Counted from the first letter of the stretch, positions 44,302-59,808 are shown. The stretch: 64,000 nt of DNA from Rhizodiscina lignyota (GCA_010015805.1 ML978122.1:1956453-2020452), one strand, 5' to 3'. The notes: generated by a model not told the origin, from the sequence alone. Numbers and translations are program-made.

Positions 44302-47297
44302 ATGTCTTCATTAGTAGACGCCGTCCTGAATTCTGATCATGCCGACATTGCCCCTGCTCAAACTCCAACCGCTGCGCGCCCTCGCACAAATGCAAGATCG
44401 TCATCCAGACCTCGCGCGCCTCCCTCAGACAGCGCAGGCGCTCACAGCGACATAGAAGGCTTCCCAGACGATGAAGTGGTTGGCACGAGGGGAACGGAGA
44501 GAAGAGCGAGAGGCCCACGAGAGGGTATTCCGCGCGTGGTCGATGTCACAGGAGAGACGCTATCGCAGCGGTTCGAGGAGTTCTTGGAATCGTAGGCGCC
44601 GTCCAATCTATACATTACACTTATACCATGCTCACAGTCTCTCCAGGTACGTGGAGGATCCAACAGCATCAGGTGCTGCAGCCTCGAGCGTGACGACAGA
44701 CAAGTACTATATCGCGCAGATTCATGGTATGCGCCAGTACGATCTGTCCACTCTCTACGTCGACTACCGTCATCTTCTGGCACACGAGGAAGGCATTGTC
44801 GCAACGGCTATTGCGGGCGAATACTACCGTTTCCTCCCTTTCATGACTCGCGCCCTTCACAATCTCATTGCAAAATATGAGCCTCGTTACTTTCGCGAGC
44901 ATCGACAACCGACTACAGCTGGCAGCACAACTGCAACATCAATCGCTGGCAATGCAACGAGCCAAGCCGAGTCAACGTCCAATTTGACGTCTAATCAACA
45001 AACGGACAAGCTCTTCACACTCGCATTCTACAACCTTCCCCTGGTCAGCCGCATTCGCGCTCTCCGCACTGCGCAAATCGGCAAACTCCTCTCAATCTCT
45101 GGTACAGTTACGCGAACTTCTGAAGTTCGACCCGAGCTGAGTCTTGCGACATTTATCTGCGAGAACTGCAATACCATCATTCCGAACATCGAACAGACCT
45201 TCCGCTACACCGAGCCAACGCAATGTCCCAATCTTACCTGTGGAAACCGGTTTGGATGGCGGTTAGATATCAGACAGAGCACGTTCGTCGATTGGCAGAA
45301 AGTCCGGATTCAGGAGAACAGCTCGGAGATTCCTACAGGAAGCATGCCTCGTACGATGGACGTGATTCTTCGTGGAGAGATGGTCGATCGTGCAAAGGCT
45401 GGCGAGAAGTGCATCTTTACCGGAACACTAATTGTAATTCCGGATGTGAGCCAGTTTAGAGTACCTGGTACCAAGCCTCAAGCGACTCGAGGCAACCCAA
45501 ACACACAACGTGGGACAGATATCGGCGGCAGTGGAGTCAGCGGTCTCAAAGCACTCGGTGTGAGGGATCTGACATACCGCATGGCATTCTTAGGATGCAT
45601 GATTACTCCAGACCTCTCTACTCAAGGCAATTCTGCAGGCCAGCAATTGCAGGGCCAAGCGGGCAACATCCTGGCTTCTCTTCACCAGACAATGATTGAT
45701 TCCGAGGACGAGACGGGTGAGAAAGCTCAAGCAGATTACCTTGAGAACTTGAGCCCGGCGGAAGTTGAGGACTTGAAAGCCATGGTGCACAAGCCGAATA
45801 TCTTCATGCGGCTGGTGGATAGCATCGCGCCTATGGTCTACGGCCATCAAGTCATCAAGAAAGGCCTGCTCCTCCAACTCATGGGCGGTGTGAGCAAAGT
45901 TACACCCGAAGGCATGGCGCTCAGAGGTGACATCAATATCTGCATCGTTGGCGACCCAAGTACCAGCAAATCGCAATTCCTCAAATACATCTGCTCTTTC
46001 CTGCCTCGAGCGGTCTACACGTCTGGCAAAGCCTCTTCAGCGGCTGGTCTCACCGCAGCGGTGGTCAAGGACGAAGAGACTGGCGACTTCACCATCGAGG
46101 CAGGTGCGCTCATGCTTGCTGACAATGGCATCTGCGCCATCGACGAGTTCGATAAGATGGATATCGCGGACCAGGTTGCGATCCACGAGGCGATGGAACA
46201 GCAGACTATTTCGATCGCAAAGGCGGGTATCCAGGCTACCTTAAACGCAAGGACGAGTATCCTCGCAGCTGCAAATCCAGTTGGTGGCAGGTACAACCGC
46301 AAGACGACATTGAGGGCGAACGTAAACATGAGCGCGCCTATCATGTCCCGTTTTGACCTGTTCTTTGTGGTTCTTGACGAGTGCGACGAGGCCGTAGATC
46401 GACATTTGGCTGATCATATTGTCAACATCCACCGTCTTCGGGACGATGCAGTGGAGCCAGAATTCAGCACCGAACAATTGCAGCGGTACATCCGATTCGC
46501 AAGAACATTCAAGCCCGAGTTCACGCCCGAGGCGAAGCAATCGCTTGTGGAGAAGTATAAGGAACTCCGAGCAGACGATGCGCAAGGTGGTATCGGCAGA
46601 AGCAGCTATCGCATCACGGTCAGGCAGCTGGAGAGTATGATCCGATTGAGTGAGGCGATCGCGAAGGCAAACTGCGTCACGGAGATTACGAGCGACTTTG
46701 TCAGGGAAGCGTACAACCTTCTCCGCCAGAGCATCATCTCTGTCGAGAAAGACGATGTGGAAATCGAGGGCGATGAAGCTGCAGAAGAAGATGAGCAGGC
46801 GGACGGCGGCGCTGATCACGACAGAGATGGCGATTCGCCCATGGCCGATGGAGACGCGGAGATGGGCGATGCGTCGAGAGCATCCGCGACTCCAGGACCT
46901 TCGCAGAAGGAGAGGACGAAGATCACGTATGATAAATACATGTCGATACTTAATACGATGGTCCGGAGAGTCAACGACGACCAGCAGTCGACGGAGGACG
47001 GTGTCGAGGAAGAGGAGCTTCTCGTATGGTATTTGGAGCAGCGAGAGGCGGAGCTGGAGACACAGGAGGACTTGGAGAGTGAGAGAACGCTTGCGAAGAA
47101 GGTCCTGAAGAGGATGGTTAAGGTATGTCGAGTCCAACTACAGCGAATTGAACAACACCGACTGACTGGTAATATAGGACAACATCCTGATGCAGATTCG
47201 TGGAGAAGGTCTCGCTGACGAGCAAGGCCAAGGTTTACAGGGCGAAGGGAAGGTAGTGTATGTCATGCATCCAAACTGCGCAGTTGAGGATATGTAG
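44302..47297 (+). CDS. MCM6: DNA replication licensing factor MCM6
   Basis: Introns at 44592-44646 and 47123-47177. GDPSTSKSQ, IDEFDKM, SRFD and ITVRQLES; C-terminal YVMHPNC. Confidence 0.97.
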
Positions 47298-55226: not shown

Positions 55227-57687
55227 TTACTCATAACCTGCACCCCGCGCCCAGGGACTCTCAGGGTTATGCTGGTATTGTGCTAGTATGGAGATTTTAT
55301 ACGTTATCGTTGCGTAAGGACTCATATTTGACATCACACCCTCCTTCTTCAGTGCCTTCACTATCTTCGTCTCTTTAAGGTTCTCAGCACTGGTTTCAAC
55401 AGCTCTGGAGCAAACTGAATAACGAACCTTTTTGATGGGTAGACTGGCCTGTTTCTAATTTGAAGACGTCCCCGATCCTGGTCTCGTGAACGGCAATGGA
55501 GCTTCTCATCCAGGACAGCTTGTCATTGTAGAGCTGTATTCTGAGGATGCTATTCTCAGCTACCCACCTATTCGCTCAAAACGCAAATCAGTACCTATTC
55601 GTATTAGTCTTCATCGGCCTCCTACGTACATGCTAAACCTTTCACCCCAGAAAGGACTATGTGGCTGTTGTATGGTCATTGTCCGCCGAAACTGCTCGCC
55701 ATCGATCGTAGCGACTGCGTAAGTGCTGTGAGTGGATCCCCATGCTGTATAAGCGTAAGTGTTCAAGTATTCCTTCTCATAAATGTAAGGCATGGAAGAT
55801 TTTACAGAGTAGCCTGTCCCTTAAATTCCTTCTCATATACAGCGCATCCGCAGCAATGACTGTGCACTGATTAGCCGATCTGCCTCGCAGCACGATCTAT
55901 ACTTCCTAGACTTACTCTGAAGCAAAATTGTGTATTTCTTTCGTGGGGCTGCTTCTTGGGGACGTAGATCCACGGGTTGCGGCGTCCCAGCAATGGACAT
56001 ATCATCAAAGGGCTCAAATGCAGACAAGTTAGTTAAATTAAATTTTGCGTCCCTTGGAGCAACATCTTGATATAATTGCCGAAGGTCAGGCTGGTCAGGT
56101 GAATCTGCTCTCTGCTCTGAGCCATTCGCTGAAGTGGGCCCTCCGTCGCTTGGAGCACGAGATTGATCCAACTGTCCCGGTTTGGGTGGGCCTACTTCTT
56201 GCTCTGGCTTATCAATCGCAATATTAGGGGCCTTGGACTTGGATCGAATAGTGCGCTCCGTATCAGACAGAGAGACGAGGTGAGATGTATCCTCAACCTC
56301 AGGCAGCATTAATTCTTCGATTGCTGACCCGTTAGAATATTCTCTCCATATATTCGATGCCTGTGGCTTACGCGTTATCTGAGACCCATGTCGTCTCTCC
56401 GTATGCTCTCGTGGAATGACTTGAGGCGGGGAGGCGAGGCGAGATGAATCATCGCCTTTCGGCTGCGTTGCTTCTTCGATTGCCGAGCGATTAGAGACAA
56501 TACTCCATATTCCTGAAGCTTCTGGCATTTGCCCTGTGCGAGGCGCGTCCCGTCTTTCCGTATGTTCCTGTAGAATGACTGGAGCGCCGAGCGGTGAATG
56601 AGTTGAGCAGTGTTCTCTGAGCTTAGTGCTAGCCTGTTTCAGCCACGGATGTTGAAGAGCCTCACTTGCTTTCATCCGACGGTTAGCATCTACTGCCATG
56701 AGATTCATGGCGAATTGAACTCCATCGGGTCCAGCAGAGGGAACAAGGCGTCCTGAAGGATATTGATCTACTCCTCGACAGTAATCCCCTAGGGCACGGA
56801 GATTCTTAAAGGTACGCTCACCAGTGAGCATTCGAAAGCCAATCTCTCCCAGAGCCCACATATCAGCCGGCTGATAGTCGTAGGGTTGCGAATCATTAGC
56901 GGGCTGGCCGAAGCCGAGGAGTTCGGGTGCCATAAACTCCAGCGTGCCTTTTACAGTTGATGGTCCACCTCTGTCTGCAGCGCGGTTACTGATGCCAAAG
57001 TCGCCAAGTTTTACCCACCATTCCGCTGGTGGATGTGATCTGATAAGTATATTCTAACCAAATATGGCTGTTAGTCGCTGTGACACGAATATATGGCGTA
57101 AACCTCCTTACTGCAGGCTTCAAATCTCTGTGTGCGAATCCATTCAAATGCATCTCGCGAAGGCCCTCTAGGATTTGACTGGTCAACTCTCGAGCTTCTG
57201 CAGGCGGCAATCTAACGTTGAAGAGGTAGTCATGAAGATCGCCAAAAGGACAGTATTCCATGGCAATATAGATTGCCTCCGCATCGTCATACCAGCCAAA
57301 TGATTTCACGAAGTAGACGTTGTACTAGAATCTGTCAGGTCTCGCAAAAATTGTTGAATCGACACGATGTTGACTCACTTTTGGATGAGCAAACTTTGCG
57401 ACCGCTTCCAACTCTCTGTAAAAATCAATAGCCTTCGGCGAGGTTTGCCGCTTATGGACCATCTTCACTGCGCGCACATGTCCAGTGCTGTTGCCTTCTA
57501 CGCATTTTTCCAGCCAAACACGTCCGTATGATCCTTGTCCAAGATCCTTTTCTCGTTTCCACCGCTCTTCTCGAGATATGCGTCGGCGATTGGTACCCGC
57601 CTCGGTATAGCTGTGGACAGTGTGGTGATCGTTGAAATGTGTGTCGAGTTTCGAATCACGTACAAGATCGGGTATCGGAGGCATCAT
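55227..57687 (-). CDS. Ser/Thr protein kinase with a C-terminal Rsp5-like C2 domain
   Basis: GQGSYG, AVK, HRDLKPANIL, DFG and APE. Introns at 57378-57325, 57111-57054, 55915-55860, 55805-55745, 55629-55568 and 55427-55373 keep the frame to the TAA at 55227. Confidence 0.82.
56265..56582 (-). repeat. Diverged 159-bp tandem duplication in the kinase linker
   Basis: VILQEHTERR...ASGIW...SAIEE versus VIPREHTERR...ASNIW...SAIEE; AATGACT anchors at 56574 and 56415. Confidence 0.85.
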
Positions 57688-58145
57688 GCCTACAATTCTT
57701 GTTAGGTTTTGCTCAATATTAATTTAAGATTGGGAAACCTTACCCAGAATGTTAGATTCCCATGTCCTTCGTGGAAAGGTGACCGTAAGGTCCTTCCGTC
57801 AGGGTGAGCCGGCTGTCGAGTTACTCTAATTACCGCGCTGTCGAGTCGCGTGGGTTTCTCTCAAAAGCATGGGAAAGCCTCCAAATTAGTGAAATGGCGA
57901 AGATAGCAAAAAGGTTACGAGAGGGCTAATTGATGAGAAATTTGAGTAGGAATCGGTCTCCGTCGGGGTTGGCCTTTCATGGCAAGGCTGAGGCTGTGAG
58001 GGAGGCAGTTCCGAGGCGCTGTTAGACACCTGCATACTGCAGGCAAACCTGGATCAACGTCTTTAAAATCCTAGCCTTCTGCAGAAGAAAGTATTGACGC
58101 CTACTTTTCTCCTCGTTATGTGCTCCTCAGCTTGAAATTGCCACT

Positions 58146-59808
58146 ATGGCCGGTGTGGATATCGCTCTTGCTCTCCCCGGTGTGGTGGACTTAGCAATAA
58201 AGTAAGTCGGCTTCACTTGCTTCGCCCGTATCGTGTGTCAAACGAAGAGTCACCATCTAATCCCAAACAAATATGGCAAAATCTTGATCCAGACTTGCTC
58301 CGCCTTCAAAAATGCAGACCAGGAGATCTTTGAGCGCGCCATTCGTATCGAAAGCTGCTGGAAGCGAACAAGTGTGCAGTTGGATTCCTTAAGTCGGGTT
58401 TCGAGTGATCTAGATGAAGAACATGAAGCACTACAGAATCAGATTTTAGTTATCCTCAGCTCAAAGCTTAAGGCTGCCGATCTCAAGTTAAATAGTTATC
58501 TCGAGGAAGGACCTTGCCCGAGCCCCGAGAACTCTGCCACATCATCCAAAATGGTGAAGATCAAGAGATTCAAATACGCATTGCTAAAAGAATCCCTGGA
58601 CAAGACCATCTTGGACTTGGAGTCGTGGCAGAAAGAGCTTTTCGATCCATCATGGTTTCTGATCGCGAGAGTTGCAGGACAACTTGTCGATAAAGAGCTG
58701 TCCGGCACGAGCCAAAAGAGTAACGTCATCACAACCGCTTCGGGTGTGCGTGACTCGTTGAGTAAAAGTCCAAGGCAAAACGTCTCTGTATTTTTACCAG
58801 AAGACGGATTAGAGTCGGCCAAAATTGCTCATATACCTTTGAGCTCTGCAAAGTCGGTGCAAAGAGCAGGCTCTACCAAATGGCTCATCCAGGACTCGAT
58901 ATCATGCGAGTCATCCGCAGATTTCTCCCAGCGAAGGAAAGCGATTCGGGATCTGGGAAGAAAATTAAAGGCTGCCGATCCTTCAACTTTTGCACTACTG
59001 AACTTAGTCGGCGTTGTCGCGGAAATTGCGTCGAACGAGTTTAGACTAATTTTCAGAACACCGGATAAGATGGACGACCCGCAATCTCTACGGACTGCTC
59101 TCATATACAAAGACTCGAACCATTCTCTCTCAGATCGATTTCGAATAGCCACGCAGTTAGCAAGAGCAATATGTTCTTTCCATACGTTTGGATTTGTGCA
59201 CAAGAGTATCCGACCGGAGAATATTCTCCTGTTCCAAGACGAAGATTCAATCCTCGGATCCGCATTCCTTCTTGGCTTTGAAAAAATACGTCTAGAGGCA
59301 GGTCAGACGCGACTGACTGGCGATGACGCTTGGGAGAAGAACCTCTATAGACATCCTCAACGACAGGGTGTGAAACTCCAAGAACCCTACGTCATGCAAC
59401 ACGACATTTACAGCCTTGGAGTCTGTCTGCTCGAAATCGGCCTTTGGCAGTCTTTCGTACTGTATGACGATGCATCTTCGAGCCCCAGTGAGGCAGTGGC
59501 TTACAGGTTCGGTGCAAAAGCTACAGACAGAGCAAGCTATGCAGAGTCTGTTAAGGGCAACTTGCTCGGTTTAGCTAGAGAGTCGCTTCCAAGTCGTATG
59601 GGATGCAAGTACGCAAAGATCGTTGAGACCTGTCTGACCTGTTTAGATGAGGGGAGCGATGATTTCGGGGATGAATCGGAATTTCAGGATGAAGACGGCG
59701 TTTTAGTTGCTGTGCGATATATCGAAAAGGTAGGCCACCTTGTGCGTCTCGCGGACAAACAGCTCACGTCTCAAGGTCCTTCTACAGCTTGGCAACATTT
59801 CAGTATGA
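58146..59808 (+). CDS. HeLo-like N-terminal domain plus pseudokinase (MLKL-like architecture); intron 1 acceptor looks defective
   Basis: MAGVDIALALPGVVDLAIK|YGKIL..., HKSIRPENIL, LLGFE, NLYRHPQRQG and HDIYSLGVCLLEIGLW; last intron at 59730-59775. Confidence 0.75.

Follow-up and report, generated by a model that had tools for sequence, protein, structure and literature searches.

A recurrent head-to-head pair of kinase and helical-bundle pseudokinase genes in filamentous ascomycetes, a candidate counterpart of RIPK3 and MLKL

In animal necroptosis, the kinase RIPK3 switches on MLKL, a pseudokinase with a helical bundle; to our knowledge, the animal RIPK3 and MLKL genes are not genomically paired. 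Known triggers in fungi are the amyloids of NOD-like receptors (NLRs) for HeLo executors and neighbouring proteases for gasdermins. Here we describe two divergent genes in a 64,000-nucleotide stretch of the genome of the dothideomycete Rhizodiscina lignyota (GCA_010015805.1, ML978122.1:1956453-2020452; hereafter the window, with positions counted from its first letter)—a left gene, on the minus strand, that encodes a protein kinase, and a right gene, on the plus strand, that encodes a pseudokinase preceded by a helical N-terminal domain (N-domain). Related pairs recur in other fungi, and their persistent back-to-back linkage suggests, by analogy, a kinase-triggered switch built like RIPK3-MLKL.

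Several described systems lie close to this locus. The available text of PMC8851545 places a protease gene within 10 kb of about 80% of 1,884 fungal gasdermin genes, often with WD40, ANK or TPR. A figure legend in a 2025 review (PMC12881547, available in part) notes that some HELL domains belong to proteins that also carry a kinase or a pseudokinase domain, an arrangement reminiscent of MLKL, and the accessible part of a plant study (10.64898/2026.02.17.706082) describes a kinase and a pseudokinase that act as an immune unit. An MLKL-like architecture in fungi has already been mentioned in this literature, as far as its accessible parts go; the gene pairing was not found there. In the accessible text searched, with subscription journals and supplements outside the search, we found no fungal pair of a kinase gene and a helical-bundle pseudokinase gene and no kinase-to-pseudokinase route in fungi, and the available parts of PMC12881547, PMC9815663, PMC10197012 and a plant MLKL preprint make no mention of a linked kinase gene.

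Recurrent pairing and variable kinase tails

The neighbourhood survey covered 80 metagenome-contig loci, taken from one scan with the family alignment and searched by tblastn with residues 1-330 of P0121 (the NCBI model of the left gene) and with P0003, an orthologue 64% identical to the right-gene protein. Fifty-one loci, each with at least 1,200 bp upstream, were informative; the other 29 were too short upstream. A related kinase gene lies head-to-head with the pseudokinase gene in 36 of the 51 and elsewhere in the locus in 7, with none in the remaining 8, so the recurrent pairing expected by the first-pass annotation was found. Over all 80 loci, an opposite-strand related kinase is directly upstream in 42, with estimated start-to-start distances of 330-1163 bp (median 555), and the start of a kinase is still visible in 6 of the 29 loci with short upstream sequence. 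Clustering at 95% nucleotide identity gives 63 clusters, 40 of them informative (28 head-to-head, 2 mixed, 3 elsewhere and 7 without a kinase). As a background figure, one related kinase gene (two high-scoring segment pairs, in L078) is found in the 256,763 bases that are more than 3 kb away from pseudokinase genes.

The partner kinases retain most of their catalytic motifs: among 29 of them, window included, AVK is present in 28, DFG in 20 (with DMG in 4 and DLG in 3) and APE in 24, and the odd HRD strings seen in a few, at a conserved intron, are probably read-through. Pairwise distances among these kinases correlate with those among their pseudokinases (Mantel r 0.70, 29 pairs; 0 of 5,000 permutations as high), and for 13 of the 29 both matrices give the same nearest neighbour. 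Judged from the sequences, such co-divergence shows a long joint history; by itself it does not show interaction.

Adjacency survives changes of orientation, because inverted, tandem and single-model arrangements still join the kinase to the pseudokinase. In Trypethelium subeluteriae the pseudokinase gene is tagged Q9165_007807 and the kinase gene Q9165_007808, consecutive numbers from two records that both list 118,308 bases as the longest contig. Tandem arrangements occur in L007/L030, L017 and L054-56, and in Monosporascus one gene model (P0040) runs from the pseudokinase into a partner-kinase fragment with WD40 repeats. Among 12 longer relatives, three Fusarium models each contain pseudokinase, kinase and ankyrin repeats; the kinase parts of P0289 (Fusarium heterosporum) and P0291 (F. 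tjaetaba) share 39% and 35% identity with the left gene, and the single models represent either real fusions or merged tandem genes. Near-identical contigs differ as well. A 2.8-kb inversion, about 93% identical within the inverted segment, separates L006 (4975..7760) from L007/L030 (5008..7761). All of the kinase-WD40 gene lies inside this inversion, which stops immediately upstream of the start of the pseudokinase and could reflect either a true structural polymorphism or an artefact of assembly. The pseudokinase genes of L002 and L003 are 95% identical, homology is lost about 260 bp upstream of the start, and the upstream sequence of L003, nearly 8 kb long, contains no kinase—a difference that may represent presence/absence variation.

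The first-pass annotation had also proposed that the C-terminal tail of the kinase is swappable, and the tails do vary, with WD40, ankyrin, KA1 and C2-like forms. Tails were scanned in 26 of 35 representative head-to-head loci, those with at least 590 bp past the kinase domain, using open reading frames (ORFs) of at least 85 aa (161 of the 331 ORFs of at least 55 aa) and Pfam at E<=1e-4 or E<=1e-3; the domains found are listed in Table 1. In L008, L011, L058, L062 and L063 (WD40) and in L023 (KA1), one open frame holds both the tail domain and the end of the kinase domain. Further WD40-tailed relatives of the kinase were found in the database (P0123, P0125, P0126, P0127, P0130, P0135 and P0136). 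High internal repeat identity is a typical mark of the sensor repeats of fungal NLR-type proteins; here neighbouring WD40 units have a mean identity of 80% in P0123, 76% in P0040 and 76% in L077, and in other arrays, such as those of L011, L058 and L010, the units are not alike. KA1 is a phospholipid-binding module, and the KA1 tail of L023, like the C2-like tail in the window, would serve to bring the kinase to membranes and not to sense a ligand.

The predicted proteins

The right gene belongs to a large family that has lost the catalytic residues of protein kinases. Of 8,000 candidates scored in a word-indexed search, 1,795 were relatives at E<=0.001, and the best 120 of these are 44-67% identical across most of their length; the named sources among the relatives listed are Dothideomycetes, Geoglossomycetes, Eurotiomycetes, Lecanoromycetes, Sordariomycetes and Leotiomycetes. 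In family alignments of 38 and 132 members, the aspartates of HRD and DFG are missing family-wide and the glycine-rich loop is absent. HKSIRPENIL and GFE stand in place of HRD and DFG in the window, just as first read. In the smaller alignment every member has the H and K of HK.IRPE and the G of GFE; in the larger one the G is again invariant, and the H and K are present in at least 90% of members. The position of the catalytic Asp is occupied by S, N, G, T or M, and that of the catalytic-loop Asn mostly by T. A Thr about 9 residues past GFE is retained in at least 90% of the family and is followed by the nearly invariant stretches NLYRHP.RQG and MQHDIYSLGV.

For the C-lobe of the right gene, Pfam gives matches to Pkinase, PK_Tyr_Ser-Thr and DUF7580, all sub-threshold. 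The DUF7580 (PF24476) gathering score of 27 bits is reached neither by the window protein (21.9 bits) nor by the best homologue, P0092 (26.5 bits); on these scores the family adjoins DUF7580 and is not inside it. A literature search for DUF7580/PF24476 returned 0 papers. The best 60 of 229 matches in a profile search of the PDB are led by B-Raf (1.4e-7), LIMK1, RIPK1 (5.6e-6) and eIF2AK, and these matches cover the same C-lobe region. A full-length AlphaFold2 model of P0003 has a predicted local distance difference test score (pLDDT) of 87.5 and a predicted template modelling score (pTM) of 0.86, and its residues 189-515 superpose on MerTK, CTR1, BRAF, RIPK1 and IRAK4 with Z 18-20 over 250-270 residues. 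According to this model, the C-terminal part of the right-gene protein is a genuine kinase fold, predicted to be unable to catalyse by the canonical mechanism. Compared with the PDB as a whole, the full-length model matches generic kinases (Roco4, IRAK4, PKA), with no two-domain MLKL match among the matches listed.

The N-domain begins with 19 hydrophobic codons (MAGVDIALALPGVVDLAI...), and a hydrophobic start is found in 18 of 18 NCBI-modelled relatives (mean Kyte-Doolittle value of residues 2-19 from 1.05 to 1.77). In an AlphaFold2 model of residues 1-191 of P0003 (pLDDT 78.7), four long helices (3-29, 36-65, 68-98 and 111-142) are followed by short ones (145-152, 156-164 and 170-182) that lead to the N-lobe of the kinase fold; the full-length model reproduces the same helices. 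The description of a helical N-domain with a hydrophobic start was upheld, and in these models the right gene has the domain order of MLKL: helical bundle, brace, pseudokinase.

Foldseek found no match of the N-domain model in the PDB at E<=0.001 (best, IncA at 0.057). In VIA-align, run against 48,161 chains, the top 50 include the potato Rx coiled-coil (CC) domain (Z 9.6), mouse MLKL (4btf, Z 9.5; root-mean-square deviation 2.2 over 97 residues, model 12-146 on chain 2-116), NRG1.1 CC-R (8.7), the human MLKL N-domain (8.5), MLA13 (8.3) and AtMLKL3 (7.8); the scores for the MLKL four-helix bundle (4HB) are 9.5 and 8.5-8.7. According to the guidance for the tool, helical bundles commonly give Z values up to about 13. 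A second VIA-align comparison gave the same picture; the solved HET-s HeLo domain is outside the top 50 of both lists, and a lower-ranked match is possible. The nearest named feature clusters in the ESM Atlas are HeLo (0.95, 0.93 and 0.90), and 7 of the 10 best share the family or clan. A profile of the N-domain found 670 matches at E<=0.001 among 1.84 billion representatives; the best 150 of them, all at E<=3.3e-30, are presumably family members. On our reading the right-gene protein has the MLKL architecture and is probably part of the wider 4HB/HeLo world, a membership that is suggested and not demonstrated.

Two more distant relatives, P0292 (Mollisia scopiformis) and P0293 (Gallowayella weberi), carry a Pfam-significant HeLo domain together with this type of pseudokinase. 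The 1430-aa model P0292 contains NB-ARC (180-363), TPR repeats, HeLo (864-1027) and the related pseudokinase (1199-1404); it represents a true fusion unless two genes, an NLR and a HeLo-pseudokinase, have been merged in the model. HET domains were also seen: one, weak (E 1.1e-4), near the family member in L074 (2391..3677, minus strand), and one, strong, within the Fusarium decemcellulare model P0288 (residues 820-1016, E 2.2e-27).

The left gene looks like an active kinase. Its HRD, DFG and APE motifs are intact, as the first reading had them, and Pfam Pkinase covers residues 43-311 of P0121 at E 2.7e-49. The best PDB matches—Rad53 (5.7e-32), Chk2, DAPK1, CaMKII and AMPK—all belong to the CAMK group, and none places the kinase in the TKL group; from its sequence, the left-gene product looks to be a catalytically competent CAMK-like kinase. 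The core tetrad of the RHIM has the form [IV]Q[IVLC]G, and a regular expression for it found 0 instances in P0121, P0122, P0001 and P0003. Because its kinase domain is CAMK-like, the left gene resembles RIPK3 only in its proposed role. The kinase domain of the partner kinases is preceded by a conserved N-terminal extension (PDLVRDSKLETHF ... TVH.Y; P0121 residues 1-45) and followed by a short S-A-x-W-S motif (P0121 about 350-356); these could be docking or regulatory elements.

The C2 assignment of the tail held in part, on two weak lines. In the ESM Atlas the named clusters closest to it are C2_CAPS (0.91), C2 (0.89) and C2 (0.88), and Pfam C2 (PF00168) stays below its cut-off of 22 bits, both for the exon ORF 55611..55820 (E 0.0096, 16.6 bits) and for the whole of P0121 (E 0.17, 12.6 bits). 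The domain may have been missed on P0121 because the splicing of that model removes the first strand of the C2-like domain.

Gene models and surroundings

The first-pass annotation had placed divergent start codons 459 bp apart, and its layout agrees with ours: the two ATGs fall at 57687 on the minus strand and at 58146 on the plus strand, which leaves 458 intergenic bases, and its outer limits of 55227 and 59808 coincide with the stop end of the left coding sequence and the end of the right one. Coordinates are collected in Table 1.

P0121, annotated at NCBI as 'kinase-like protein [Rhizodiscina lignyota]', is 100% identical to the largest exon of the left gene. It splices 55916 straight to 55744, and so probably skips a 54-nt exon and takes the acceptor at 55540 in place of the earlier one at 55567. 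The proposed exon and the earlier acceptor are, from the sequence, the more likely choice: each yields introns of 55 to 62 nt, and the acceptor brings back an ENSIL stretch that is also present in the Trypethelium orthologue P0122. An intron interrupts the HRDLKPA / NILI motif of the left gene; the Trypethelium orthologue has an intron at the same place, which its NCBI model reads through. In the right gene, splicing out the 48-nt first intron gives a LIP-K stretch found too in the Trichoglossum protein P0002, and a 46-nt intron precedes the last exon, which encodes VLLQLGNISV, in agreement with the C-termini of homologues.

Of 36 intergenic regions from paired loci, 30 contain AGGCTG or its complement, whereas 50 mononucleotide shuffles never gave more than 21. 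The divergent promoter may thus have this hexamer as a shared cis-element; the copy in the window is in AAGGCTGAGGCTG. The pair sits among ordinary genes, as described at first: an MCM6 homologue (44456..47215) lies upstream, Pmp3 and a 3-hydroxyisobutyrate-dehydrogenase-like gene are among the neighbours, and downstream is a minus-strand gene with DUF7102 and a SAM-like domain (60012..62900).

Table 1. Features of the gene pair in the window, and domains in the kinase tails of the survey loci.
Feature	Position or loci	Strand	Basis or remark
Left gene, CAMK-like Ser/Thr kinase with long low-complexity linker and C2-like tail	55227..57687	-	ORFs and splice sites, NCBI model P0121
Left gene, firm exons	57687..57379, 57324..57112, 57053..55916	-	ORF and splice-site reading
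Left gene, proposed 54-nt exon	55859..55806	-	inferred
Left gene, tail exons	55744..55630, 55567 (NCBI model: 55540)..55428, 55372..55227	-	
Left kinase, catalytic motifs	HRD 57132..57124, DFG 57002..56994, APE 56930..56922	-	read from sequence
C2-like C-terminal domain, below family threshold	55227..55859	-	Pfam C2, ESM Atlas clusters
Divergent promoter region, shared, 458 bp	57688..58145	.	contains AAGGCTGAGGCTG at 57984..57996
Right gene, four-helix-bundle pseudokinase, about 522 aa	58146..59808	+	sequence, homologue ends
Right gene, exons	58146..58201, 58250..59729, 59776..59808	+	
N-terminal domain: four long helices after a hydrophobic start, then two or three short brace-like ones	58146..58790	+	
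Pseudokinase domain	58791..59729	+	family alignments, kinase-fold superposition
Pseudokinase motifs	HKSIRPENIL 59199..59228, GFE 59274..59282	+	
Near-invariant activation-segment Thr	59307..59309	+	family alignments
WD40 tails, 9/26	L006, L008, L010, L011, L025, L058, L062, L063, L077		Pfam
KA1 tail, 1/26	L023 5142..6527	-	Pfam E 2.4e-10
Weak SH3 tails, 2/26	L024, L050		Pfam
RhoGAP ORFs, 1/26, gene boundary uncertain	L076		Pfam
Nothing attributable in tail, 13/26	remaining loci		Pfam

Proposed function and relation to known systems

The observed architectures, family-wide catalytic loss, recurrent adjacency, co-divergence and tail variability are compatible with a conserved two-gene module of filamentous ascomycetes in which a sensor kinase controls an executor of MLKL architecture, a reading we put at an even chance. 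The tail of the kinase would sense a cue or place the kinase at a membrane, with WD40 or ANK tails serving ligand sensing and C2-like or KA1 tails responding to membrane or calcium state. The kinase would then engage the pseudokinase domain and phosphorylate its activation segment, probably at the near-invariant Thr, and phosphorylation would, by analogy with animals, release the N-terminal bundle onto membranes and lead to regulated cell death or another membrane response. A stronger version, which we hold somewhat more tentatively, would be a widespread, unrecognised necroptosis-like pathway of these fungi: a NOD-less receptor kinase, in which a CAMK-like kinase is fused to NLR-type WD40/ankyrin repeats or to lipid-binding C2/KA1, would phosphorylate the linked MLKL-architecture executor, whose bundle would attack membranes. 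If that is true, the pair would be a kinase counterpart of the gasdermin/protease clusters and would imply that death signalling from kinase to pseudokinase arose either independently or at a very ancient date.

Several results weigh against a sensor kinase acting on an executor. The survey loci are metagenomic and not phylogenetically independent; 8 of the 51 informative ones lack the kinase; the kinase is CAMK-like and not RIPK-like; and shared ancestry alone can yield co-divergence. Unrelated bundles—a sperm microtubule protein (Z 12.7), Cbl TKB (10.7-11.1) and designed proteins—outscore MLKL in the structural comparison, and on the model used here the MLKL and CC scores of 8-10 are within the helical-bundle background. 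The window has no match at E<=0.1 to HeLo (PF14479), Helo_like_N (PF17111) or SesA (PF17107), a HeLo-type Pfam match is found in 0 of 8 homologues at E<=1 and in 0 of 120 precomputed annotations, and hhalign of the N-domain profile with the HeLo-bearing P0292 and P0293 gives probabilities of 0.3% and 0.2% and aligns nothing to their HeLo regions, from single-sequence templates of low power. The claim that the N-domain is a HeLo domain was not supported as it was made; of the looser claim of a HeLo/4HB-like fold, the four-helix bundle stands in the model, and its MLKL matches are no better than those of unrelated bundles.

An alternative is a signalling pair that causes no cell death, in which the pseudokinase would be an allosteric activator or scaffold and the N-domain would serve oligomerisation or localisation. 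STRAD is such a pseudokinase activator, of LKB1. Adjacency and co-divergence also fit a STRAD-LKB1-like pair, as do the location amid housekeeping genes, the absence of a HeLo Pfam match and an N-domain that resembles generic bundles, such as Cbl TKB, at least as closely as it does the MLKL 4HB; we nevertheless consider it fairly unlikely, in view of the hydrophobic extreme N-terminus in all 18 modelled relatives, the HeLo feature clusters nearest to the N-domain, the fusion of related pseudokinases to bona fide HeLo domains, the NLR-like repeat tails, and the HET-domain genes beside or within models of relatives. The control could also run in reverse, with the kinase holding a dangerous executor phosphorylated and off until loss or inhibition of the kinase releases it, in the manner of a toxin-antidote or allorecognition system. 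Tight linkage and a shared promoter suit a poison-antidote pair, as do near-identical contigs that differ in the kinase gene (absent from L003 and present in L002; inverted between L007 and L006). Those metagenomic differences may, however, be assembly artefacts, the repeat-type tails suggest ligand-triggered activation, and an obligatory antidote is hard to reconcile with a pseudokinase that lacks a nearby kinase in 8 of 51 loci; such a guard appears quite improbable.

Least probable of all, we judge, is that the two genes are co-regulated neighbours sharing a divergent promoter, with products that do not act on each other. The recurrent intergenic hexamer points to shared regulation, but both partners are kinase-fold proteins and they co-diverge, and the constraint of sharing a promoter is insufficient because adjacency survives in tandem arrangements and in the single models of Fusarium and Monosporascus. 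The sensor-kinase and executor reading can be approached directly: a linked pair across at least six Pezizomycotina classes supplies both candidate partners at once, so that kinase-controlled, necroptosis-like death in fungi becomes directly testable. On that reading, the variable repeat tails would mark a new class of candidate fungal immune receptors without a NOD domain; among the loci examined, none of the kinase partners was seen to contain a NOD.

The likeness to RIPK3-MLKL proposed by the first-pass annotation therefore stands in part. The right gene shares the domain order of MLKL, and the active-looking kinase of the recurrent pair is a candidate upstream partner; in contrast to the animal system, the two fungal genes are genomically paired, the kinase is CAMK-like, lacks a RHIM and bears repeat or lipid-binding tails, and the structural matches to MLKL are no better than those to generic helical bundles. 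The right gene also has no detected sequence homology to MLKL, its pseudokinase profile being nearest to B-Raf, LIMK1 and RIPK1 (E 1e-7 to 1e-5, among the best 60 of 229 matches). Plant MLKL is represented by AtMLKL3 among the structural matches of the N-domain (Z 7.8); plant tandem kinase resistance proteins differ in being single polypeptides without a four-helix bundle.

Among fungal systems, the HeLo and HELL executors (HET-S/NWD2 and HELLP/PNT1; PMC12881547, in its available part) share with the right gene a hydrophobic N-terminal helix with a bundle, and share with the locus a two-gene organisation. They differ in that the neighbour here is a kinase and not an NLR, in that we saw neither an amyloid motif nor a prion-forming tail, and in that the right gene has no Pfam match to HeLo or Helo_like_N. 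The HeLo proteins of the DUF7580 type come nearer: the pseudokinases of P0293 and of the HeLo-pseudokinase part of P0292 are related to that of the window (E 2.4e-5 and 4.8e-9) and likewise follow an N-terminal helical domain, which, unlike that of the window protein, passes the Pfam HeLo cut-off of 23.2 bits (30.7 and 46.6 bits). The gasdermin/protease clusters of the het-Q1/het-Q2 type (PMC8851545, in the text available) pair a gasdermin with a protease, whereas the present loci pair a helical-bundle pseudokinase with a kinase. The two otherwise share their organisation—a candidate executor adjoins an enzyme gene (here head-to-head in 36 of 51 loci and elsewhere in 7), the enzyme bears repeats or other tails (here WD40, ANK and KA1), and partner types track the clades of the executor.

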